Shown: positions 3,588-50,505 of the stretch, piece by piece
Numbering within the stretch: position 1 is the first letter of the stretch
Layout: each line of letters begins with the position of its first letter
Source: Treponema sp.
GTDB taxonomy: Bacteria; Spirochaetota; Spirochaetia; Treponematales; Breznakiellaceae
NCBI GenBank assembly: GCA_031276295.1
Contig: JAISNI010000215.1
Coordinates: 2,285-66,284, forward strand
Length of the DNA: 64,000 bases
Direction of reading: 5' to 3'
Position numbers and translations under genes: made by a program
Notes under the pieces: generated by a model
Told to the model about the DNA's origin: nothing
Databases searched by the model: none
The model's input: only the letters and a program-made list of their open reading frames with translations

Positions 3588-4274
3588 TCATTGCCTGCCG
3601 TTGCGGAAAAAGTTCACGATACGCTCCGTGAAGAGTATGCCGAAGACGCCTAAGAGGGCGGTGATCAGAAACAGCACGAGCAGTTGAAGCCAGTCTCCGC
3701 GCGCGGCGGAAGCGCCCATCATGGTGGAGCTCAGTATGGTAGGGATGCGGGCAAATGCGGAGATAAGTATAAAAGACGAAACGTTAAAACCGCTTAAAGG
3801 GACGAGGTAGGTGAGCATATCCTTGGGTGTGCCGGGGATTAAGAATAAGACAAAGATGGTCAGGGCGGTCTTCTTCCTGTCCCGGAGGAAGCCGAATTTT
3901 TCCATATCTTTTTGTTTAAAAAAACGGAGGAACGGCAGGCATCCGAATCTTTTGACCAGCCTGAATACCACGAGCGAGGAAGCGGCGCAGCCCGCAAGAC
4001 AGATGCCGAGGCCGCCGAAAGCGCCATAGGCCGCGCCTGCCAGCATCTCTACAGGTTCACCCGGGATGACCGCGATTACAATCTGCAAGAACTGTATGCC
4101 GAACATGACGGTAACGCCCTTGAAGCCGAGCCGTGCAATCCACGCGCTGAATGCGCTACGGTATACAGGGTCGCGGAGCTTGCCGATGAAAGGCCAGGAG
4201 GCAAGGCAGAGCGCCGCCGTAAGCGCGGCAAAGAGGGCGATGAATACTATAAAACGGCGTTTGGCTTTTTCCAC
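3588..4274 (-). CDS. TVP38/TMEM64 (DedA-related) family membrane protein
   Basis: 228 aa and multi-TM. VIPGEPVEMLAGAAYG is typical of the SNARE-associated/TVP38 family. Confidence 0.7.
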   Translation of the reverse strand: MEKAKRRFIVFIALFAALTAALCLASWPFIGKLRDPVYRSAFSAWIARLGFKGVTVMFGIQFLQIVIAVIPGEPVEMLAGAAYGAFGGLGICLAGCAASSLVVFRLVKRFGCLPFLRFFKQKDMEKFGFLRDRKKTALTIFVLFLIPGTPKDMLTYLVPLSGFNVSSFILISAFARIPTILSSTMMGASAARGDWLQLLVLFLITALLGVFGILFTERIVNFFRNGRQ

Positions 4275-4283
4275 GGTTATCTT

Positions 4284-5090
4284 TTAGACGCGTCTTTGCC
4301 CGAACGAACGGAAAAAATTTTCCTCGATGCTCTGTTCAAGTTCCCGCTCCCCTTCCGCGCCGCCTGCTTCCCGCCTGAGCACCGCGGCCTGTTTCAGCAG
4401 CAGCGGAAGATCCTCCCCGTGCGAGTAGGCCCTGTTCCGCAGCGGCTGATAGGGGGCGTCGGTTTCGAGGAGCAGCCGGTCGGCGGGGAAAACCGCGCAG
4501 CAGCGCATAGCCTCCTTGTGGTTGAGAAGCAGGGCCGAGCCGAAGGAAAAGTAGGCATTGATCCCCCGTTTAAGAAGCGATTCGCCTTCAAAGCGGGTTC
4601 CCGGCCAGGAATGGAAGATCAGGGCGGGGAGGGAGCGCAGCTTTTTCGTGTAGGCGAAAACCTTGTGCATGGCCCTGCGTACATGCAGAACCAGGGGAAG
4701 GCCCCGGTTCAAGGCGGTTTCCAGATGAACCCTAAAGAGTTCCTCCTGAAGGGCTTCGGTCCCCTTAAAGCGTTCGTCGTAGAGATCAAAGCCGGTTTCG
4801 CCTACCGCGTCAAGCCTGCCCTCCGCGGCAAGGCCGCCGAGATACGTGAGGAGCTCCTCCAGCCGCGCCCGCGGCGCCGAGGCGGGCAGTTGGGGGTGAA
4901 CGGCAAAGCAGCGGAGGAGGGGAGGGTCGCCGGCCTTTCCCGCCAGGGCCTCGTGGTACTGAAACTGTTCCGGGTTCCAGGCGCTCGCGGCGCAGGCGGG
5001 GCCTGCGGGCCCCAAACGGCGGTATGCGTCTTCGGCTTCGGGAAATTGTGTGAAGAGGTCCCAGGGGTGGCAGTGGGCGTCGGTCAACAT
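4284..5090 (-). CDS. tatD: TatD-family metal-dependent hydrolase
   Basis: Motifs: MLTDAHCHPWD, GETGFDLY, LHVR, ETDAPY. The gene lies 9 bp upstream of the TVP38 gene on the same strand. Confidence 0.85.
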   Translation of the reverse strand: MLTDAHCHPWDLFTQFPEAEDAYRRLGPAGPACAASAWNPEQFQYHEALAGKAGDPPLLRCFAVHPQLPASAPRARLEELLTYLGGLAAEGRLDAVGETGFDLYDERFKGTEALQEELFRVHLETALNRGLPLVLHVRRAMHKVFAYTKKLRSLPALIFHSWPGTRFEGESLLKRGINAYFSFGSALLLNHKEAMRCCAVFPADRLLLETDAPYQPLRNRAYSHGEDLPLLLKQAAVLRREAGGAEGERELEQSIEENFFRSFGQRRV

Positions 5091-5122
5091 GGGAATAGTA
5101 TACCAAAAAATGCCGGGATTTC

Positions 5123-5160
5123 CTAGCAGCCTGCCGCGCTGAAGCGCAACAAACTACTAT
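5123..5160 (-). repeat. CTAG-bounded hairpin repeat, short form (copy F)
   Basis: Sequence is CTAGCAGCCTGCCGCGCTGAAGCGCAACAAACTACTAT. It is the reverse-orientation counterpart of copy E (50468-50505) and shares its ends with the long copies. Confidence 0.7.
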
Positions 5161-5356
5161 AATATAAAACGTCCGCCCTGTAATCTTTTTTTTGAAAAAA
5201 AATATCGTTTTTTATGGAAATTTCTTGCCTTTCCTTGACAAAATCCTTAATTTAGGGCAATGTACGCACGTTATAAGTGAATTTATCGTAACTATTTACT
5301 ATACAATTAAATGATAATTTGACGATAATTTGATAATTATAGGAGAGGGGGCCGTA

Positions 5357-5713: not shown

Positions 5714-5908
5714 GGGCCCGTCAATCCGGCTGTTGGTTGTGCTGCCGGTGATTATAGTTACCCTTATCCTTGATTGCCCAGCAGTTCTTTAAATTTAAAA
5801 CCGACGAGTTAAAAAAGTACGCCGAAAATCAATGGACCCTCCTGGTGGAAAACAACTACGCGGGCCGCGATGATATGGTAGGCGCCGCCAGGAACGCGGT
5901 GGAACTCT

Positions 5909-8882: not shown

Positions 8883-9899
8883 ATGGAAGAAAGTATCGGC
8901 AATAACCGGCAAAATTCCGCAGTATACGCCCGTGAAATACCCGGGAACCTCGACGATAAGCGGGTTACCTGGCATACGGCCTTCATTGACGCCATACGGC
9001 TCTCATTGATCAACTATCAGGACGCCCTTGACTTTGACATTGAGTATCAGCTTACCAGGGAACCGCTCCGCATTGATTTGATCATCATCAAGAAAAAGCA
9101 GGATGTGATTATTGATAAGAACATCGCTTCCATATTTAAAGGCAAGAACATCGTGGAATTTAAGGGGCCGGACCACTCCCTCTCGGTGGAGGATTTTCAC
9201 ACGGTTATGGCCTACGCCCACCTGTACTGCACTCCTCCCGGAAACGCCGATATGGGGGATTTGAGCGTAAGCTTTGTATGCAGCCATGAACCGCGTGATA
9301 TGAAGGCATACTTACGGGACTTTTATCACTATAGGTTGACGGAGAAATGGCCGGGAATTACACTAATAGAGGGCGGGGTGATGCCCATGCAGATAGTAGA
9401 GCGGAATAAGCTCAGCGCGAGGGAAGAGCCGTGGCTGGTGAATCTGGACAGGAATTTGAATGCGGAAAGGGTAAAGGCGGTACTGGAGGATGTCCAAAAG
9501 ATAGGCACAAGCGTATCTTTTGGAGCATACTTATATATGGTGGTACTGGCAAACGCGGAAATGGTGAGGGAGGTAATGAAGATGAATGATTTGGCGGTAT
9601 TCGAGGAAGTGTTTAAAGGGTTCGGTATCATAGAAAAGTACAAGGACGAGGGGATAGCCGAGGGAATGGCCAAAGGGATAACTGAAGGGGAAGCCAAAGG
9701 GATAGTCAAAGGAATAGCTAAAGGGATAGCCAAAGGAATAACTGAAGGGATAGCCAAAGGAATAACTGAAGGGGAAGCCAAAGGCAAAGAAAAAAAGGCG
9801 CTTGAGATAGCTCAAACCATGAAGGCAGATAAGGAACCGATAGACAAAATAGCCCGCTATACAGGGTTGACGGAGCAGCAGATAGCTGCATTGCCATAA
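8883..9899 (+). CDS. PD-(D/E)XK nuclease-family (Rpn/YhgA-like putative transposase/recombination-promoting nuclease) protein with a repetitive C-terminal linker and HTH-like tail
   Basis: PLRIDLIIIKK...NIVEFKGP matches the D...ExK core. The tail IARYTGLTEQQIAAL is typical of this family. The region is lower in GC than its surroundings. Confidence 0.65.
   Translation: MEESIGNNRQNSAVYAREIPGNLDDKRVTWHTAFIDAIRLSLINYQDALDFDIEYQLTREPLRIDLIIIKKKQDVIIDKNIASIFKGKNIVEFKGPDHSLSVEDFHTVMAYAHLYCTPPGNADMGDLSVSFVCSHEPRDMKAYLRDFYHYRLTEKWPGITLIEGGVMPMQIVERNKLSAREEPWLVNLDRNLNAERVKAVLEDVQKIGTSVSFGAYLYMVVLANAEMVREVMKMNDLAVFEEVFKGFGIIEKYKDEGIAEGMAKGITEGEAKGIVKGIAKGIAKGITEGIAKGITEGEAKGKEKKALEIAQTMKADKEPIDKIARYTGLTEQQIAALP
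9649..9786 (+). repeat. In-frame 12-nt periodic tandem repeat (about 11.5 units) encoding (E/K)G(I/M/E)(A/T/V) tetrapeptides
   Basis: The DNA reads gag ggg ata gcc / gag gga atg gcc / aaa ggg ata act / gaa ggg gaa gcc and so on. The protein reads EGIAEGMAKGITEGEAKGIVKGIAKGIAKGITEGIAKGITEGEAKG. Confidence 0.9.
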
Positions 9900-13809: not shown

Positions 13810-13970
13810 CTAGCAGTTTGTTGCACTTCAGCGCAAAATTGTATAAAAATTCACGAAAGTGAATTTTTATACCTTACAAACTGCCATCGGACCAAAGGTC
13901 CGCGCAGCCCCGATTATCGGGATTTTTTGCATGAATATGCAAAAAATCCACAAGCGCGACAGGCTGCTAG
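13810..13970 (+). repeat. CTAG-bounded hairpin-mosaic repeat, long form (copy A, 161 bp)
   Basis: The ends are CTAGCAGTTTGTTGC...GACAGGCTGCTAG. Internal perfect hairpins are GTATAAAAATTCAC-GAAA-GTGAATTTTTATAC, GGACC-AAA-GGTCC, CCCGAT-T-ATCGGG and GGATTTTTTGCAT-GAAT-ATGCAAAAAATCC. It is about 90 percent identical to copy B. Confidence 0.85.
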
Positions 13971-14305
13971 GCAAGCCGCCGAAATCGGTCTCGAAAACAT
14001 TCTTATCGTTACCGGATGCGAAATAACCGGGAAATTCCCGCTTCGACACGGGCAATATCTTTGGCGGTACGAGGGTTTCCTTACGGAGGCTGCTATAAAC
14101 TGCATTCTGCACCCGCCCGCCGGTTTTCCTGATTCATACACGGCGTTTTTTAATGATATTGCATTTTTTACCCCATGACAAGGGACACAGGAAAAGGATT
14201 TTTGCCTGAAGAACGGCACATTATTTGTACCGCCCGGAAGCGGTTCGTTCTAAAGAATATCACCGTATATTGATATTTTCCCTTTCAATGGGTATATATT
14301 TAGAT

Positions 14306-14372
14306 CGTATAACAATTCACGAAAGTGAATAGGTATACGATGCAAAAATCCACCGGCGCGGCAGGCTGCCGG
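14306..14372 (+). repeat. Degenerate partial copy (G) of the same repeat family
   Basis: GTATAACAATTCACGAAAGTGAATAGGTATAC followed by GCAAAAATCCACCGGCGCGGCAGGCTGCCGG parallels the modules and right end of copy A, with mismatches. Confidence 0.55.
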
Positions 14373-16396: not shown

Positions 16397-17827
16397 ATGC
16401 TTGAAGCGTTATCTCAGACACAAATTCAAATCCCCTCCGTACCGGAAGGGGCGGTACGTGTAATTCCGGTTAAAAAAGGCAAAGGTAAATCCGCTCTCGG
16501 AGCTTTTTCAAGGCTTCTTGATGGGCTAAGAGGCAATCCTAAAGGAAATTTTCCTAAAAGGATAGCCGGCGGAGAGGGAATTCCCGTAGAGGACGGTAAA
16601 AAAACCGGACGGAACCTTCAAAAAATTGATCTTAAAGAGAAAAAGAAAATTTCTTCTTCCGCGGAGGACGGGGCGGATCTCATGTCCGTCTTTTTGGACC
16701 TTGTTTCCAGTAAAGCGGACCTCAAGGTTTCCTCTCCCGCGGGGCGGGAGTTTACGGCAGGGCATACCGCGGGCCGGGCGGCGGGCGGAAAGGACGAAGC
16801 GGGAAAAATTCCCCCCGATGCCGTTGCTGTGAAGGGGGAAAAAGCCCTTTCCTCAAGACAGGTACAGGAAATTCCCCCCGAATACGGCGTGGAATCTGGA
16901 GAAGCCGCCCTCGAGGATGCCGTTTCCGTTGAAGAGGGGGGAAATGACGCCGTCCGGCTTTCGGTGGGGGAAGAAAAGGGCCGGAAGGCTTCGGAATCGG
17001 GGCGGGCGGCGGAGGGTCCCGTTCAAAATACGGAGCTTAGCCCCGCGCCGGAAAAGATGCCCCATAACCTTTCGGTGCAGGGAGGCAATGCGGAGAATCC
17101 GTTCCAAAATAAAATGGACGGGAACCGGGCGCGGAAAACCGAATCGGCTTCCCCAAGGAAAACGAGCGGGCGCATCCCCCCCGATGCGGGGAAACCGCAT
17201 ACACGGGATGCCGCCGTAACGGAGCTTGTTCGGGACGTGAAACCCCAGACCGCCGTGCCGGGAGCGGGCGGGGAGGAAATTTCCGTGGACTTACGGAACC
17301 CTGAAACCTTTGATGGGATTACGGAGAGAGACCCCGGAACAGGACGCCCGTCCGGGGAGGGCCGCTTTGGGGACGTGCTTGCACGGGAACTTAACCAGGG
17401 GCTTTCCACCGATATAGTAAGACACGCGTCCGTCATCCTGCGCGGTGGCGATTCAGGCTTAATCCGGCTTACCCTCAAGCCGGAAACGTTGGGAAATGTA
17501 AAGATACGCCTTGAAATGTCCGAAAACAAGATAATAGGGCATATTATTGTAGAAAGCAGGGAAGCCCTCAGGGCTTTTGAACAGGAAGCCCCCGTTTTGG
17601 AAGCGGCCTTTAGGGAAGCCGGTTTTGAGGGCGCCAGCCTCGATATGTCGCTGGCTTCGGGGGACGGTTCCGGCGGGGGCGGGGAGAGGACGGATCAGGA
17701 TGTCCTTTCTTCCCTGCGTATAGCCGCCAGCTATGACGCCGCCTCCGGCCTGGCCGAAGACGCGGACTCAGGCGGAAGTAAGGGCCTGTATGCGGCAGGC
17801 CGCTCTGCAATCAATATGTTGGCCTAG
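16397..17827 (+). CDS. fliK: Flagellar hook-length control protein FliK (treponemal Tap1-type)
   Basis: The C-terminal Flg_hook-like region reads LIRLTLKPETLGNVKIRLEMSENKIIGHIIVESREALRAFEQ. The gene lies just before flgD. AAGGAGG is 8 nt upstream of the ATG at 16397. Confidence 0.8.
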   Translation: MLEALSQTQIQIPSVPEGAVRVIPVKKGKGKSALGAFSRLLDGLRGNPKGNFPKRIAGGEGIPVEDGKKTGRNLQKIDLKEKKKISSSAEDGADLMSVFLDLVSSKADLKVSSPAGREFTAGHTAGRAAGGKDEAGKIPPDAVAVKGEKALSSRQVQEIPPEYGVESGEAALEDAVSVEEGGNDAVRLSVGEEKGRKASESGRAAEGPVQNTELSPAPEKMPHNLSVQGGNAENPFQNKMDGNRARKTESASPRKTSGRIPPDAGKPHTRDAAVTELVRDVKPQTAVPGAGGEEISVDLRNPETFDGITERDPGTGRPSGEGRFGDVLARELNQGLSTDIVRHASVILRGGDSGLIRLTLKPETLGNVKIRLEMSENKIIGHIIVESREALRAFEQEAPVLEAAFREAGFEGASLDMSLASGDGSGGGGERTDQDVLSSLRIAASYDAASGLAEDADSGGSKGLYAAGRSAINMLA

Positions 17828-17921
17828 CAGCCGGATGTATTTCTAAATCCGGTAAATAACCGGATTTTTCAAAGATGTTTTTCAGGAAAATTCTTATATA
17901 TTAGAATGAGGAGAAGAGGAT

Positions 17922-23725: not shown

Positions 23726-24798
23726 GCGATGCTGCGCTTTCGCAAGATGAAATTGATGCACTCTTGTCAGGTGCAAACGCCTTTGAAACAGGGGGCGCTG
23801 TTACAGGAACGGTAGTTCCGCCCGGAGAAGCGGGGGAAATAGTCAAAGCTCTGCAAAATTTTCTTTCCGGGACGGCGGGCGCTCTTTCCTCCAATATTTC
23901 CATGCTGACCGGCGTTGCCGCTACTCTTACCGGCCCGGAAGTCAGTTTTACCAACAGAGAGGCCCTGGTTCAGCAGTTGCCCGATATGGTAACGGTTGTA
24001 AAGGCCGATTTTTCTTCCGGTTTTCCCGGTGAACACATGTTCGTCATGGGGGAAGATGCGGCCAAGGCCCTTGCCAGCGTTATGAACAAGGAAGAGAACA
24101 TATCGCTGGACGAGATGGCTATGTCCGTTATCGGCGAGGTGGTATCTCAACTGGTGGGTACGGAGATTACCGCCTTAACCAACAAGACCGGTAATAAATC
24201 GATAGCCTCGGTAAGCCCCGAGGCGGCGAATGTACCCAAGGCGGTCGCCGCCCTGCCCGGCAGCGATTTTGCGAGAGCGCTCTACACGCTTGACCTTGCG
24301 GAAGGTAAGAAATACCAGGTCTGGGAAATATACGGCGCGGGTATATCTTCCGATATAGCCAAGGCCCTAAACGGAGGTGCACCCGCCGCCCCCGCGCCTA
24401 AAAAAGCCCACGATATGGCCGCCTCCATGATGCCGAATATGGGTGCGGGCCCTATGTCCGGTATGGGCGGGGGCCAGCCCACAAATGTGCAGTCGGTACA
24501 GTTCCCCAATCTTATGCCCCATCCTACCCCCCAGGAACAGGGGAATATCGGTCTTATCATGGATGTCTACATGGAGATGACCGTAGAGCTGGGCCGTACC
24601 CGCAAACTCATCAAGGAAATCCTGGGAATGGGGGAAGGCACTATCATTGAGTTGGATAAGCTGGCCGGTGAACCGGTTGATATCCTGGTGAACCATAAAC
24701 TGATAGCTAAAGGAGAGGTTGTAGTCATCGATGAAAACTTTGGGGTGCGTGTTACCGAAATTGTCTCCCCAATGGAAAGAATGAGTGAGATGGGCTAG
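23722..24798 (+). CDS. fliY: Flagellar motor switch protein FliY (FliN-type C-terminus with extended N-terminal domain)
   Basis: Motifs LSQDEIDALL and the C-terminal FliN/SpoA region MEMTVELGRTRKLIKEILGMGEGTIIELDKLAGEPVDILVNHKLIAKGEVVVIDENFGVRVTEI. An ATGA overlap links it to fliM. Confidence 0.9.
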   Translation: MSDAALSQDEIDALLSGANAFETGGAVTGTVVPPGEAGEIVKALQNFLSGTAGALSSNISMLTGVAATLTGPEVSFTNREALVQQLPDMVTVVKADFSSGFPGEHMFVMGEDAAKALASVMNKEENISLDEMAMSVIGEVVSQLVGTEITALTNKTGNKSIASVSPEAANVPKAVAALPGSDFARALYTLDLAEGKKYQVWEIYGAGISSDIAKALNGGAPAAPAPKKAHDMAASMMPNMGAGPMSGMGGGQPTNVQSVQFPNLMPHPTPQEQGNIGLIMDVYMEMTVELGRTRKLIKEILGMGEGTIIELDKLAGEPVDILVNHKLIAKGEVVVIDENFGVRVTEIVSPMERMSEMG

Positions 24799-24954
24799 CA
24801 GCCGGTTGCGCGTGTGGATTTTTTGCGCCGGATCTTTGGTCCGATTTATGCAAAAAATCCCGATTGTCGGGCTATTTCGGTAGTTTGTATGGTATAAAAA
24901 TTTATTTTCGTGGATTTTTATACGAGTGTGCGCGGAAGCGCGGCAAACCGCTGG
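24795..24954 (-). repeat. CTAG-bounded hairpin-mosaic repeat, long form, inverted orientation with rearranged modules (copy C, 160 bp)
   Basis: The copy begins CTAGCAGCCGGTTGCGCGTGTGGATTTTTTGC and ends CGCGGCAAACCGCTGG. It carries the same modules as the reverse complement of copy A. It lies between fliY and fliO, and the fliY stop TAG (24796-24798) falls in its terminus. Confidence 0.75.
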
Positions 24955-32503: not shown

Positions 32504-33369
32504 TGATGGAAGATCAGGCGGAGAAGCTGCGGGAAATAATGAATAAAAAGCATACCTCTAAGGATAGCAAGAAAATCCGTATCATTACGGTAACATCCGG
32601 CAAGGGGGGGGTTGGCAAGACCAATATTTCCATAAATATGGCGATTGCCTATGCCCGGCTTGGCAAGAAAGTTGTCGTAATGGATGCGGATCTGGGGCTT
32701 GCCAATGTGAATGTTATGCTCAATACAATTCCTAAATTCCATCTTTACCATGTGATTAAGCGGCAAAAGACGTTGAAAGAGATACTTATGGAAACCGAAT
32801 ATGGTATATCCATCATTGCGGGGGCTTCAGGTTTCTCTAAAATCGCCAATCTGACCGAAGATGAGAGGCAGAACTTCATTGATGAACTTAATACCCTTTC
32901 CACCGCCGATATTATTATCGTAGATACCAGCGCGGGGGTTTCGAGCAATGTTCTGGACTTTATCGCGGCGGCGGATGACGCGGTCATCATCGCTACGCCT
33001 GAACCCACGGCCATTACCGATGCTTTCGGCATTATCAAGATCATTGCCAGCGAGATGGAGAACCTCAATATAGGCCTTAAACTTGTGGTTAACCGGGTAA
33101 AGTCCGCCGTTGAGGCAAAACAGGTTGCGGATCGTATGATCAACATCGCGGGGCAGTTTTTGAACATCAAGGTTGAGTATCTGGGGTTTATCTATGACGA
33201 CAATACGGTAGCCCAGGCCGTCATTCGGCAGAAGCCTTTTCTGGTACTGGACCCCAGATGTAAGGCAAGCCAGTGTGTTCAGCATATCGTAGAACGGCTT
33301 GAGAAGAGCGAATTCCACGAGAGAGGCGGTTTTGGCAATCTGTTTAAGCGGGTTTTTAACCGCACATAG
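32503..33369 (+). CDS. flhG: MinD/ParA-type ATPase FlhG (YlxH)
   Basis: Deviant Walker A SGKGGVGKTNISINMA. The start overlaps the flhF stop (TAATG). The stop TAG at 33367-33369 is the first 3 nt of repeat B. Confidence 0.9.
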   Translation: MMEDQAEKLREIMNKKHTSKDSKKIRIITVTSGKGGVGKTNISINMAIAYARLGKKVVVMDADLGLANVNVMLNTIPKFHLYHVIKRQKTLKEILMETEYGISIIAGASGFSKIANLTEDERQNFIDELNTLSTADIIIVDTSAGVSSNVLDFIAAADDAVIIATPEPTAITDAFGIIKIIASEMENLNIGLKLVVNRVKSAVEAKQVADRMINIAGQFLNIKVEYLGFIYDDNTVAQAVIRQKPFLVLDPRCKASQCVQHIVERLEKSEFHERGGFGNLFKRVFNRT

Positions 33370-33510
33370 CAGTTTGTTGCGCTTCAGCGCAAATATCATA
33401 AATATTCACGAATGTGAATATTTATACCATACAAACTGCCGGAGCAGCCCCGATAATCGGGATTTTTTGCATGAATATGCAAAAAATCCACAAGTGCAAC
33501 AGGCTGCTAG
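33367..33510 (+). repeat. CTAG-bounded hairpin-mosaic repeat, long form (copy B, 144 bp)
   Basis: The ends are TAGCAGTTTGTTGCGCTTCAGCGCAA...CAACAGGCTGCTAG. It is colinear with copy A except that the GGACC-AAA-GGTCC module is absent. Confidence 0.85.
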
Positions 33511-37429: not shown

Positions 37430-38080
37430 ATGCTTATGAATCCTGCCCTGGTTATTTCTGTAATAAGCCTTTTAATAAGTTTTTTTTCTTTTTTCTATTT
37501 TAAAATCTATCTAAAACGGCGTACCGGTCAGGAGCGTATCCTTGCGGATTTTAGGGAAGAGGTAAACAAGCTGCTTGCGGAGATTGACCATATTACCGAC
37601 CGCGACGCGACGCTTGTGGAAGAACGGGTAAGCGCCTTAAAAACACTGCTCTCAGATGTGGATAAGCGCATTGCCGTGTATGCCCGTGAGATAGAACGCA
37701 AAGGCAGGCAAGAAAAGGTCTATACAGAGCTGGGGAGAAACCGTTTTATCAGCCTGGAATCCCCGCCTGCCTCCGGTAAGGCGCCGGAAACTTCCCCGCA
37801 AACGGAGAAGAACAAGCCTCTTGGACCTCCTGCCCCGCAGGTAATACCGGTATTTACGGTCCGTGGAGAAGATGCTCCTGCCGAAGATCCCTCCGAAAAA
37901 GGCGGTACGCAGAAAAGCCCGCCGGTCCGTTCAAAAGAGGGAGAATTGTACATAGCCAGGCAGGCGGCGGCTCTTGCCAAGGCTGGCTTTGCCTCCAACG
38001 TGATAGCGTCCCGTCTGGGCGTAAGCATTACCGAAGTAGAAATGGCCGTCGCCCTCTTCGGCCCTAAGAGCCTTTCCTAG
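37430..38080 (+). CDS. Hypothetical membrane-anchored protein with coiled coil and C-terminal HTH-like segment
   Basis: The N-terminal TM is PALVISVISLLISFFSFFYF. The C-terminus reads AKAGFASNVIASRLGVSITEVEMAVALF. The stop TAG at 38078-38080 lies in the terminus of repeat D. Confidence 0.5.
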   Translation: MLMNPALVISVISLLISFFSFFYFKIYLKRRTGQERILADFREEVNKLLAEIDHITDRDATLVEERVSALKTLLSDVDKRIAVYAREIERKGRQEKVYTELGRNRFISLESPPASGKAPETSPQTEKNKPLGPPAPQVIPVFTVRGEDAPAEDPSEKGGTQKSPPVRSKEGELYIARQAAALAKAGFASNVIASRLGVSITEVEMAVALFGPKSLS

Positions 38081-38160
38081 CAGTCTGTTGCACTTGTGGA
38101 TTTCTTGCACGGGCAGCCAAAGACCGCCCTGAGCAAAAAATCCACATAACAGGCTGCTAG
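38077..38160. repeat. CTAG-bounded repeat, medium form forming one long imperfect hairpin (copy D, 84 bp)
   Basis: CTAGCAGTCTGTTGCACTTGTGGATTTCTTGC - loop - GCAAAAAATCCACATAACAGGCTGCTAG. The two CTAG ends supply the stop codons of the convergent flanking genes. Confidence 0.85.
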
Positions 38161-48614: not shown

Positions 48615-50471
48615 ATGGGGAAAATAAGTTTAATTTTGGGTTCTCATAGACACCTTCCGTATGGTTCTTCCGCCGATGAATTTGAAGAACTGTACAGGCG
48701 GGAATTGAAACCGTTTATTACAACTCTCTACAGATTTCCCCGTATCAGCCTTGTCCTGCACTATTCCGGCGTTCTCTTGCAGTGGATTGAGCGGCGGCAT
48801 CCTGAGCTTATCATGCTGCTTAAGAATCTGGTCGTCCGTAAGCAGGTGGAATTCTTAGGCGGCGGATTCTACGAGCCGCTGCTGCCCCTTATCCCGCTTG
48901 CCGACAAGCTCGGTCAGATTGAGATGATGACTACTTATCTCCGTAAGACCTTCGGGAAGCGGCCCCAGGGTTGCCTGCTGCCCTGTAATGTCTGGGAACA
49001 GAACCTGACCGGCCCTCTCCACGCCTGCGGTATGGTTTACACCTTCCTGAACGAAGCTCTTTTTAGCCACGTTCAGGGTGAAAGCCTGCCCTACTACAGC
49101 CCCTGCATTACCGAGGATCAGGGGAAGGTTATCACGGTATTCCCGGTGTATTCGGAACTCGGCAGAAAACTAAGCGTCAGGGATCCTTCAGCCGCCCTGG
49201 AAAAGCTCCTGGGGGAACAGGAAAAAATATTCACGGTCTTTACCGATAATTTTTTCGATAAGGATGCAAACGAACTTTTCTACAACGATTTTTTTGAAGC
49301 GCTCTCCGTATCGGATCCCCGCATAGAATTCATCACCCCCGGAAGGATCTTCCGTCAGTTAAAGAATCCTGAAAAGCGTTATTTCCCCAGTTTTATTGAG
49401 AGAAAGGGCGGGGAATGTTTTCTGCCCAGGAAATTCCTTACCGATTGTTCCGAAGCTAACGGTATTTATGCCAAAATGATGTATACGCATATACTGATCA
49501 ATCAGCTTCGCGGGGATAAGGCGCGGAAGAGCGCCGCCCGCAGGGAACTGTGGAAAGCCCAGGGCTGCGATATGTTTTATCCCGGTAACGAGGACGCGCC
49601 GCTTATCGGATGCCAGGCCAAGCGGAAGGCTGTGTACCGGGCGCTGCTCGAAGCTGAAAAGATAAGCAGGGAAACCGCGTTTATCCCGTCGCTTGCGGCC
49701 TTTGATTTCAACCTGAACGGCAGGACCGCGTACATCTTTCAGGACGAGCTTATCAACTGTTACATAGATTCGGCAGGGGCCGTGTTCGAGCTTGACTATC
49801 TTCCGCGAAACTGGAATTATCTTGATACCTATACCGCGTACAAGGACGGCGGAAAGAACAAGCGCCGCGCGTTTGCCGATATTCTTGCGCCCCCCGAGGC
49901 TGCCCTTGAGCATATCCTGCAAGGCGATTTCCGGGGCTTCCGGCGTTGCGGCTGCGAGCACTACGAAAACGGCGGAACGTCGGGGAGCCGCGAAAAGGTG
50001 AATTTTACGCTGCCTGCGCGGATCCTCCCCTCGGGAGAAGGGAGTTTCGACGCGGTTGAAATAGAAAAAACCTTCTGCCTGGAACATGATTCGCTTGCCG
50101 TAACCTATGTGTTGAACAACAGGCACAGCAGACCTGAACGTTTTAAATTTATGCCGAGCATCGATCTTTCCTTTCCGGGCGACGGCAAGACGTTCCTTGA
50201 GGTTTTCCGCGTGCGGGAAGATTCACGGGAAGAAATTCCCGGTGCGGGGGTATTCCCCGAAACCGGCGCGGTGGAATTTCGGGATATAAAGAACGAGGTC
50301 AGCGTAGGGCTTGCCGCGGACAGGCCCTTTGAAGCCTGGATATATCCGGTGAAAACGGGGGACGAGTATCAGTCAACCTGCCTTCTACCGGTGATGGCGG
50401 TAGACTTACAGCCGGGAGAAAACTGGAAAACGGAATTCAGGTTGAGGATAGTTTCGGATGAGAACCGTTAG
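48615..50471 (+). CDS. Glycoside hydrolase family 57 protein (alpha-amylase/4-alpha-glucanotransferase-type)
   Basis: The N-terminus reads LILGSHRHLPYG...LHYSGVLLQWI...VEFLGGGFYEPLLPLIP. 618 aa. Confidence 0.75.
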   Translation: MGKISLILGSHRHLPYGSSADEFEELYRRELKPFITTLYRFPRISLVLHYSGVLLQWIERRHPELIMLLKNLVVRKQVEFLGGGFYEPLLPLIPLADKLGQIEMMTTYLRKTFGKRPQGCLLPCNVWEQNLTGPLHACGMVYTFLNEALFSHVQGESLPYYSPCITEDQGKVITVFPVYSELGRKLSVRDPSAALEKLLGEQEKIFTVFTDNFFDKDANELFYNDFFEALSVSDPRIEFITPGRIFRQLKNPEKRYFPSFIERKGGECFLPRKFLTDCSEANGIYAKMMYTHILINQLRGDKARKSAARRELWKAQGCDMFYPGNEDAPLIGCQAKRKAVYRALLEAEKISRETAFIPSLAAFDFNLNGRTAYIFQDELINCYIDSAGAVFELDYLPRNWNYLDTYTAYKDGGKNKRRAFADILAPPEAALEHILQGDFRGFRRCGCEHYENGGTSGSREKVNFTLPARILPSGEGSFDAVEIEKTFCLEHDSLAVTYVLNNRHSRPERFKFMPSIDLSFPGDGKTFLEVFRVREDSREEIPGAGVFPETGAVEFRDIKNEVSVGLAADRPFEAWIYPVKTGDEYQSTCLLPVMAVDLQPGENWKTEFRLRIVSDENR

Positions 50472-50505
50472 CGGTTTTTTGCGCTTCAGCGCAACAGGCT
50501 GCTAG
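50468..50505 (+). repeat. CTAG-bounded hairpin repeat, short form (copy E)
   Basis: Sequence is TTAGCGGTTTTTTGCGCTTCAGCGCAACAGGCTGCTAG. It forms a 17-bp stem with a TTCA loop. The GH57 stop TAG (50469-50471) is its left end. Confidence 0.75.

Follow-up and report, generated by a model that had tools for sequence, protein, structure and literature searches.

MITEs (miniature inverted-repeat transposable elements) of ~100–160 bp, with terminal inverted repeats (TIRs) and insertion at TA, are known as Correia/NEMIS in Neisseria and as ERIC/IRU in the enterobacteria. These elements are abundant, are often co-transcribed downstream of open reading frames (ORFs), and form length variants via internal deletion. 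A family of such repeats is described here from a stretch of 64,000 nucleotides of Treponema sp. DNA (contig JAISNI010000215.1), which is referred to as the window. The kind of element is already known, and the family is a new and very abundant one. Among described elements, the nearest is MITEPye1 of Paracoccus yeei, which is 159 bp long, has IS1182-like TIRs of 18 bp and 4-bp direct repeats, and is present in 1–3 copies per chromosome at 96–100% identity (PMC11578231). The IS1182 family of insertion sequences (ISs) includes ISPse1, with 4-bp direct repeats (PMC3281130), and IS1272, which has an affinity for hairpin targets (PMC5678879). The Treponema repeats are very probably non-coding MITEs derived from an IS1182-family DDE transposase of termite-gut Treponema, which most likely also mobilises them in trans.

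The Treponema element and MITEPye1 are alike in size (~146 vs. 159 bp), in having no ORF, in their intergenic position, in their 18–19-nt IS1182-like TIRs, in flanking repeats that may be of 4 bp, as they are in MITEPye1, and in their predicted long stem-loops. Unlike MITEPye1, the Treponema family is found at ~8 copies in 64 kb and has many diverged subfamilies across a clade of gut spirochetes, to which it is specific. Its TIR variant is different, its ends are unequal (TT-type and CC-type), and each end has a complement within the element; small hairpin modules are optional, and copies frequently coincide with stop codons. The terminus CTAGCAG..TGT....CTT and the CTAG at both ends are shared with ISs of the IS1182 family (ISAzo1, ISPse1, IS1272), but the MITE has no transposase gene and about one tenth of their length. 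Its ends differ from each other at variable positions, unlike those of most full IS1182 ISs. In lifestyle the family resembles Correia, ERIC, and BOX, although it is not a member of them; the parent family and termini of Correia/NEMIS and ERIC/IRU are unrelated, and the CTAG target and the two-domain foldback distinguish the Treponema family from both. A modular mosaic of short palindromes, in which the number of modules varies between copies, is also found in bacterial interspersed mosaic elements (BIMEs), in REP doublets forming hairpins (REPINs), and in BOX. However, repetitive extragenic palindromic (REP) and REPIN units are spread by REP-associated tyrosine transposases (RAYTs; HUH type) and lack long TIRs and target duplications, whereas the MITE has the ends of a DDE IS. 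Literature searches found no account of this family in termite treponemes.

The repeat family and its IS1182-type termini

All eight stretches listed in a first-pass annotation of the window are present, with coordinates exact or within 1 nt (Table 1). There are three full-length copies (~145–161 bp), one half-copy, two 38-bp minis, and two decayed remnants. The terminus pattern CTAGCAGYYKGTTGC was found 11 times in the window with ≤2 mismatches, against 0.43 expected, and none of 100 shuffles (0/100) contained 11 or more. Repeat finding ties copies A, B, C, D, E, F, and G together as one set. A search profile was built from 41 full-length copies, all from genomes other than that of the window. 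It recovered A, B, and C over the full model length and D as a half element, while F, E, and G were weak matches; no further credible match besides A–G was seen in the window. As had been claimed, the copies have no coding capacity: no gene lies inside any of them, and the ORFs that overlap them are spurious.

Copies elsewhere had been proposed as a check on the family. One genome per species was scanned with the query CTAGCAGYYTGTTGCRCTT, and at least 105 stretches with different flanks were found, nearly all in metagenome-assembled genomes (MAGs) of termite-gut Treponema/Spirochaetaceae. Loci other than the window are given below by their L numbers. Among the matches listed are T. primitia ZAS-10 and the assembly 'Spirochaetia bacterium MS502-67', as well as three unrelated or chance matches in Marinobacter, Opitutaceae, and Chitinophagaceae. 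For at least 17 termini, the contig (assembled at k=119) stops ~100 nt away; thus, the repeat is frequent enough to break assemblies. The most similar pairs of copies (93–97% identity) always come from within one MAG, and the best pair between MAGs reaches 91%. The subfamilies are genome-specific.

The anatomy of the element was surveyed in 718 kb (the loci plus the window), which gave 203 termini and 53 paired elements. The elements range from 38 to 207 bp, with a modal length of 146–150 bp and a canonical length of ~146 bp. A 19-nt IS terminus is present at each end, CTAG[C/G]AG(TT)TGTTGCGCTT on one side and a CC variant on the other. The TIRs can be written as CTAG[C/G]AG[YY]TGTTGC[R]CTT and its complement, and they are imperfect at positions 5 and 8–9. 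A TT-type end (CTAG[C/G]AGTTTGTTGCGC) is combined with a CC-type end (reverse complement CTAG[C/G]AGCCTGTTGCAC) in 52 of the 53 pairs, so the element has a fixed polarity. Read from the TT end, the order is CTAG, [C/G]AGTTTG, a small hairpin TGCGC-TTC-GCGCA, TAAAA, hp1 (stems with A-runs and T-runs), CCTTG, CAAACT[G/C]C, CAAA with or without an optional small hairpin, G[C/G]AGCC, CGATAATCG, hp3, ACAAGTGCAACA, GGCT[G/C]C, and TAG. Two long hairpins with A/T-runs are thus located between the ends. Because each terminus has a short internal complement, folding of one strand can give two foldback domains that lie next to each other.

The first-pass annotation suggested that an IS be sought whose inverted repeats match those of the family. 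One was found in the same group of genomes, an IS1182-family element that has the same 19-nt terminus at both ends. Transposase fragments adjoin some of the termini: a 68-aa remnant in L054, and C-terminal ends at the starts of contigs L101, L091, and L108. The fragments carry PF13751 and PF01609 (precomputed Pfam matches, C-terminal fragments). They are ~60% identical to proteins named 'IS1182 family transposase' by RefSeq and 40–61% identical to the ISAzo1 transposase. By tblastn with the latter, the C-terminus was found in L108, L091, and L101, the middle part in L054, and the N-terminus in L083. The left end of the IS (L083, 3656–3860) reads CTAGCAGCCTGTTGCGCTT / CTAGCAGCCTGTTGCGCTTcatcc and is followed by 66 nt and then by the ATG of the transposase N-terminus. 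This end abuts a MITE, and one CTAG is common to both. Right ends are found in L101 (1–341), L091 (1–285 and 5102–5219), and L108 (1–357). In these, the transposase C-terminus (PF13751) is followed, ~130 nt after the stop, by ...AAGCGCAACA(AA/GG)CTGCTAG; the sequences are ...AGCAAGCGCAACAAACTGCTAG (L101), ...GCGCAACAGGATCCTAG (L091), and ...GTACAACAGGCTCCTAG (L108). The 19-nt terminus of the MITE is therefore present on IS1182-type IS ends in the MAGs Gsp477_bin25 and Kf353_bin150 and in the JGI contig L108. The distances from terminus to gene agree with those of the nearest complete relative, L112 29–1580.

The same type of terminus is found in the wider family. ISAzo1 has the ends CTAGCAGCGTGTCGGACT.../...AGTCCGACACGCTGCTAG, and ~30 complete metagenomic relatives of 1.55–1.75 kb have the ends CTAG[C/G]AGCCTGTCGGACTT, both sides bearing CTAG. 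In the wider IS1182 clade the terminus is CTAGCAGCCTGTCGGACTT, and the complete relatives share CTAGCAGCCTGT..ACTT ends. The MITE thus has a Treponema-specific variant (TGTTGCGCTT) of the terminus typical for this IS1182 clade. Both parts expected of an IS1182 derivative, IS1182-like TIRs and IS1182-type transposase domains, are thus on hand. IS630, which was suspected from the CTAG/TA target, and IS5 were also considered as the parent; both were dropped because the transposase fragments beside the termini are IS1182-type.

Table 1. Copies of the repeat in the window and the parts of copy A
Feature	Position in window	Strand	Evidence or remark
Copy F, 38-bp mini, two termini only	5123..5160	-	Terminus matches, repeat finding
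Copy A, full-length MITE with optional small hairpin	13810..13970, 161 bp	+	Profile E 7e-35, whole model
Copy A, left (TT-type) TIR CTAGCAGTTTGTTGCACTT	13810..13828	+	Matches termini of Treponema IS1182-type IS
Copy A, hp1 GTATAAAAATTCAC-GAAA-GTGAATTTTTATAC	13841..13872	+	Stem differs between subfamilies, pairing kept
Copy A, internal complement CAAACTGC of left terminus GCAGTTTG (13813-13820)	13877..13884	+	Co-variation
Copy A, optional small palindrome GGACC-AAA-GGTCC, between the two halves of the element	13889..13901	+	Absent from B and most copies
Copy A, internal complement GCAGCC of right terminus GGCTGC (13962-13967)	13904..13909	+	Alignment column 102 vs. 216
Copy A, hp3 GGATTTTTTGCAT-GAAT-ATGCAAAAAATCC	13920..13949	+	Pairing persists across different stem sequences
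Copy A, right (CC-type) TIR AAGCGCGACAGGCTGCTAG	13952..13970	+	Matches IS ends
Copy G, decayed remnant with internal deletion	14304..14372	+	Repeat families; weak profile match
Possible solo CC-type end CTAGCAGCCGGATGT	17824..17838	+	2 mismatches; weak, chance possible
Copy C, full-length, inverted	24795..24954	-	Profile E 2e-23, model positions 3-152
Copy B, canonical 145-bp element	33366..33510	+	Profile E 7e-37; orthologous site in L107 empty
Copy D, 84-bp half element, both ends CC-type	38077..38160	.	Profile E 5e-8; orthologous site in L106 without element
Copy E, 38-bp mini	50468..50505	+	Terminus matches, repeat finding

Several copies can now be described more exactly than in the first-pass annotation. 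Copy B had been placed at 33367–33510, but it begins 1 nt earlier, with ATAG instead of CTAG. Copy C was said to have rearranged modules; instead, it is an inverted copy that can be aligned with the model from one end to the other, with a decayed TT-type end (CCAGCGGTTTGCCGCGC) and an extra small hairpin inserted in the loop of hp3, its large hairpin. D is a copy as proposed, and its nature is refined to a half element with two CC-type ends. G is degenerate as proposed and consists of hp1 fused to the 3' half of hp3, with the left end absent and the right end decayed to CCGG. The idea that the short copies are long ones with the interior deleted holds, with breakpoints at the short direct repeat GCAA; the minis E and F consist of two termini only and look like deletions between this repeat. 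Of the label 'MITE/REP-like', the part that stands is a MITE family with inverted, CTAG-ended termini, as borne out by the IS1182 termini, the empty sites, and the spread of copies; the DDE-IS TIRs and CTAG flanks speak against the REP-like part. The statement that the window contains no transposase holds for the IS1182 type, of which none was found by tblastn with the ISAzo1 transposase; other transposase families were not searched for.

The window belongs to a termite-gut Treponema MAG, and one of its proteins is 100% identical to a protein recorded under 'MAG: Treponema sp.' (locus tag LBP76_). It contains a spirochete flagellar gene cluster, with genes for FliK, FliN/Y, FlhB, FlhA, FlhF, an FlhG-like protein, and a sigma factor. 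Copy A sits 33 nt upstream of the start of a minus-strand mannitol-dehydrogenase-like gene (Pfam annotation), and copy F is located between a divergent TatD gene and an ORF at 5330. An ORF at 3912–5126 that ends in the TAG of copy F is antisense to the TatD gene and was set aside as spurious.

Probable insertion at CTAG and coincidence with stop codons

Conservation of the copies at orthologous positions had been named as a sign against a mobile family, and the sites of B and D were found to be empty in relatives. The flhG-like gene of L107, a relative with ~67% protein identity, has the end ...gcaaaTAGctgat (...AAATAG), and the next gene follows 41 nt on. In the window, the same flhG-like stop codon is followed by the 145-bp copy B. 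At the site of D, TAA is the stop codon of both convergent genes of L106 (tcCTAA ... cacTTAgagttgg), and an unrelated spacer of ~430 nt with no element lies between them, whereas both genes in the window end in the TAGs of the two CTAGs of D. Site B of L106 is occupied by an element of a different subfamily. In five loci (L034, L083, L055, L026, and L091) neighbouring elements have a single CTAG in common.

CTAG is found at both ends in 40 of the 53 paired elements. The tetranucleotide is rare in the window, with 21 occurrences where base composition would predict 247 (~12-fold depletion) and a second-order Markov model 59. The ends of elements account for nine of these 21, although the elements make up 1.1% of the bases. 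The other 12 lie outside the repeats, and at least two of these (7255 and 53154) are 'C-TAG' stop codons without an element, which are potential empty targets. No palindromic preference beyond CTAG was seen, as 12 of 53 flank pairs are complementary, which is approximately the chance level.

The ends of the elements often coincide with the ends of genes. Across all loci, 47 of 160 ends (~29%) have a terminal TAG that is the in-frame stop of an ORF of ≥80 codons, compared to 11 and 19 in the other frames. The coincidence is similar for TT-type (20/70) and CC-type (25/88) ends, so there is no orientation bias with respect to the upstream gene. The first-pass annotation described every copy in the window as intergenic. 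This is correct, but five of them share a terminal TAG with the stop codon of a neighbour. The TAG of the possible solo end is the stop codon of fliK (FliK domain), and the CC-type end of C provides that of fliN/Y. The left end of B (ATAG) holds the stop codon of the flhG-like gene, the two CTAGs of D are the stop codons of both convergent genes, and the left end of E (TTAG) holds that of a GH57 gene.

A mechanism can be proposed for this pattern. The transposase would prefer (C)TA(G), and most (C)TA(G) sites within genes would be lethal targets. Stop codons of the form 'C-TAG' and 'TAA' would be tolerated as targets because the first inner base of the element is G, so that a TAG stop would be rebuilt. 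As TAG reads inward at both ends, a TAG or TAA stop that is hit at its TA would be restored as a stop codon, and the insertion would be neutral. Tolerated insertions of this kind would then gather precisely where genes end. It is shown in part that 'C-TAG' stop codons form a large share of the CTAG sites that are tolerated.

Pairing pattern and alternative explanations

Pairing was examined in a 41-sequence alignment with a hand-specified two-domain structure, which consists of the left terminus with CAAACTGC, hp1, GCAGCC with the right terminus, and hp3. Standard pairs were present in 84.8% of cells, compared to 78.0% in shuffled controls and 35–51% when the 3' partner was shifted by 1–3 columns. 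Changes on both sides were found in 108 cells vs. 44 in the shuffles. In hp1, 7 of 14 pairs show both-side changes, and its loop occurs either way round, depending on the copy. At position 5, the left terminus and its internal partner (columns 5/77) are C-G in 27 copies, G-C in 11, and other in 3; the equivalent pair on the right side (columns 102/216) is C-G in 24 and G-C in 14. Each terminus co-varies with its own internal complement and not with the opposite terminus. A second TIR variant (L038) preserves the pairing of terminus and complement with two changes, GGAGTCTG/CAGACTCC. The co-variation has few states, and these may have been inherited instead of being selected repeatedly.

The folds that were predicted agree in part with this structure. 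As single-stranded DNA (ssDNA), copy B has a minimum free energy (MFE) fold of exactly the two-domain shape (-39 kcal/mol, z = -8.9). As RNA, one strand favours an end-to-end stem with G-U pairs and the other strand favours the two-domain fold. RNAalifold on a MAFFT alignment gave an end-to-end stem only, with zero compensatory pairs, and was rejected since the two-domain structure suits the co-variation better. An origin from two fused small MITEs was also considered; a single CTAG-bounded solo left unit was found (L068 1404–1479), and this remains a hint.

The hairpin loops flip between copies. Read in the orientation of the element, 16 copies have GAAT as the hp3 loop and 10 have the reverse complement, ATTC; 4 have ATTT and 3 have AAAT. 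The hp1 loops form three flip pairs, ATTT (7)/AAAT (5), AAAC (6)/GTTT (4), and AAAA (6)/TTTT (1). Near-identical copies may differ by loop inversion alone, as in L035 vs. L062. Inversion of a spacer between short inverted repeats and correction of arms by template switching are established processes at the DNA level, for example in quasipalindrome mutagenesis and in the minute hairpin inversions of plastid DNA. Such processes would keep the arms complementary without selection on RNA. The flip-flop loops, the unequal ends, the co-variation of terminus and complement, and the lack of orientation bias point to palindrome dynamics at the DNA level and not to RNA function. We infer that template switching (quasipalindrome correction) and loop inversion, rather than RNA selection, maintain the perfect palindromes inside the element as well as hairpin gain and loss.

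Several points weigh against movement by an IS1182 transposase. No single contig with both ends of a complete Treponema-type IS was recovered, and the ends described above come from different contigs. A protein search for such an IS gave fragments of ≤120 aa at contig ends only, and a metagenome scan gave complete ISs of the generic TGTCGGAC type only. In the window's own MAG, the 64 kb examined by tblastn gave no transposase of the IS1182 type. At position 5, the left and right ends are complementary in 18 of 41 elements only, and the outer ends also mismatch at positions 8–9 (TT vs. CC), whereas the two ends of most full ISs, though not of L112 and L124, agree at the variable positions. The MITE tolerates unequal ends. 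Outer bases are unequal in four elements, ATAG...CTAG (B), TTAG...CTAG (E), GTAG...CTAG (L039), and CTAG...CTAT (F), although none of the 53 varies in the inner G and C, and the empty site B in L107 is a single ATAG. These features would fit better with a duplication of TA. Duplications of 2 bp (TA) and of 4 bp look alike because the CTAG target is palindromic. Among complete ISs, L121 and L156 agree with TA, L159 (TTAG...TTAG) agrees with 4 bp, and L167 agrees with neither. The CTAG target, the four elements with unequal outer bases, and the invariant inner G/C would also suit an IS630/Tc1-mariner-type MITE inserting in CTAG with duplication of TA, and IS630 targets NTAN (cited in PMC5678879). 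However, the 19-nt termini belong to IS1182-family elements with PF13751/PF01609 transposases, and no IS630-like element with CTAGCAGYYTGTTGC ends turned up; an IS630-type parent is thus highly improbable, even though a TA duplication is possible. The same can be said of a REP/BIME- or REPIN-like palindromic unit spread by a RAYT (Y1/HUH) transposase, for which the chance appears to be slight in the extreme. The hairpin-mosaic architecture would suit such units, and a (C)GRACC-NNN-GGTYC(G) module also occurs alone in these genomes. The long TIRs are, however, identical to those of a DDE IS, CTAG is at both ends, and neighbouring copies share one CTAG; no RAYT gene was seen beside any copy, although a systematic RAYT search was not made. 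The palindromic 20–40-nt units with a conserved 5' tetranucleotide, an associated RAYT gene, and neither TIR nor target duplication that define REP/BIME/REPIN sequences are not what was found.

The repeats could instead be primarily structured RNAs, such as cis-acting stabilisers in 3' untranslated regions or within operons, terminators, or processing sites, with their multiplicity being secondary. Both strands fold strongly as RNA (z = -9.6 and -8.6), many copies lie directly past stop codons in operons (e.g., fliN/Y and flhG), and hairpin pairing is kept while the sequence varies. Promoter and terminator scans found nothing besides a weak terminator-like motif, CCCGATAATCGGG, in which a 5-bp hairpin is followed by a T-run. 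Against an RNA function, TT-type and CC-type ends abut stop codons without orientation bias, copies A, F, and G sit in divergent promoter regions, the loops occur as sequence and reverse complement at similar frequency, which argues against a conserved RNA loop, and orthologous sites are empty in relatives. At Rfam gathering scores, tRNA alone was found in the window and no family reached threshold for the element. The fixed orientation, curated family, and conserved loops of a structured RNA family are thus absent, and an RNA role as the primary one is very unlikely. It is less improbable, but still unlikely, that the same MITE moves in a structure-dependent manner, with the foldback domains in single-stranded or cruciform DNA juxtaposing the two CTAG ends as hairpin-borne duplexes for the IS1182 transposase. 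IS1272, an IS1182-family member, is proposed to insert at stem-loops (PMC5678879), and by analogy such a variant of the mechanism is conceivable, though unproven. Each terminus co-varies with its internal partner rather than with the other terminus, also in the variant of L038; the MFE fold of the ssDNA is the two-domain fold; and a subfamily with a 17–19-nt hairpin in the right TIR has several copies in one MAG. On the other hand, the co-variation states are few and may reflect ancestry (e.g., two fused units or different parent ISs), the 38-bp minis and the full ISs have no such internal complements, and quasipalindrome correction can hold arms complementary without function. The case is built on sequence and predicted folds. 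With an IS1182-derived MITE as the preferred explanation, the foldback architecture and the flip-flop loops are the parts left unexplained. There is a small chance that the bipartite foldback design, the flip-flop loops, and the tolerated hairpins in the TIR may together reveal a structure-dependent step in IS1182-family transposition, in which the ends are presented on extruded hairpins or ssDNA, and that the MITE is adapted to colonise stop codons silently.

Related repeats and significance of the family

A sister MITE subfamily has the TIR CTAGGAG(Y)CTGTGGG(R)CTT. It is found in L038 (3406–3553) and also in L009 (3754), L010, L033, L058, L079, L086, and L091. This TIR is nearer to the generic IS1182 terminus TGTCGGAC, while the internal architecture is unchanged, which suggests co-evolution with more than one IS lineage. 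In another subfamily, a 17–19-nt hairpin, TCGGACACGAAGTGTCCGC, is located inside the right TIR between GTGCAA and GGCTGCTAG (L006 857, L070 6417, L072 274, L074 4051, L104 1860, and L106 1334–1497). It is still multi-copy in one MAG, Kf353_bin150.

The small palindrome (C)GRACC-NNN-GGTYC(G) is an insert in the MITE and also occurs solo or in other repeats, sometimes in tandem, at termite Treponema loci. There are 33 matches in ~750 kb, compared to ~5 expected from the shuffle rate of the window. They include window 13889–13901, L019 6673, L042 1781, L006 1533, L014 1854/1928, L097 3285, L073 5617, and L106 6625. It may be a separate mini-palindrome that propagates on its own.

A group II intron begins 1–2 nt past hp1 of a MITE in L087 (570–1061; ...GAATATTTTTACC|T|GTGCGCCCGG...), with Rfam scores of 135.8 bits for group-II-D1D4-3 and 45 bits for D1D4-1. 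Some bacterial group II introns insert directly downstream of hairpins, and by analogy hp1 may be a target for this intron.

Typical copies also occur on two short contigs, L002 and L067, that are binned as Bacteroidales and Prevotellaceae MAGs. Since the family is otherwise confined to spirochetes, mis-binning is suspected, and horizontal transfer may be the alternative. A MITE-like element of ~108 bp with IS1182-type ends (CTAGCAGCCTGTTGCACTTAAGG ... CTTAAGTTCGACAGGCTGCCGG) is present in L005 (550–660), a MAG of the unrelated gammaproteobacterium Marinobacter, and Marinobacter plasmids also bear IS1182-like transposases. Runs of poly-G or poly-C of 11–16 nt were seen near truncated copies or in intergenic spacers (L021 ~2055–2070, L059 ~5740–5755, and L106 6327–6338). 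In metagenomic contigs these may be artefacts of assembly or sequencing.

The minus strand of the window at 13920–13970 (CC-type end plus hp3) has a sub-threshold Rfam match to Ms_IGR-8, a small RNA (sRNA) of Mycobacterium, at 26.3 bits vs. a gathering score of 44. The Ms_IGR-8 consensus starts with cuaaAguAcUGcCGCG, which is followed by a hairpin. This 'sRNA' might be a hairpin derived from an IS end, or the match might be due to chance. The sub-threshold matches to Ms_IGR-8, Flavivirus 5'UTR, mir-3047, and ATPC were all dismissed as not significant. Elsewhere in the window, a 12-nt periodic repeat (GGGATAGCCAAA-like, at least 11 units) at 9627–9806 lies within the ORF 8883–9899 and would encode a G-I/M-A/T-K/E tetrapeptide repeat.

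The family accounts for much of the assembly fragmentation in termite-gut Treponema MAGs, in which contigs end ~100 nt into the repeat. It is also a clade-specific marker that can be used for strain typing and for the dating of insertions. For annotation, gene callers should expect stop codons inside repeats, as the TAG of the element itself becomes the stop codon of a host gene. For end recognition by IS1182-family transposases and for the dynamics of template switching at palindromes, the family is a natural data set through its unequal ends, internal complements, and flip-flop loops. It also appears to illustrate neatly how purifying selection and CTAG, a palindromic target that is scarce, would together funnel a MITE onto the stop codons of its host.

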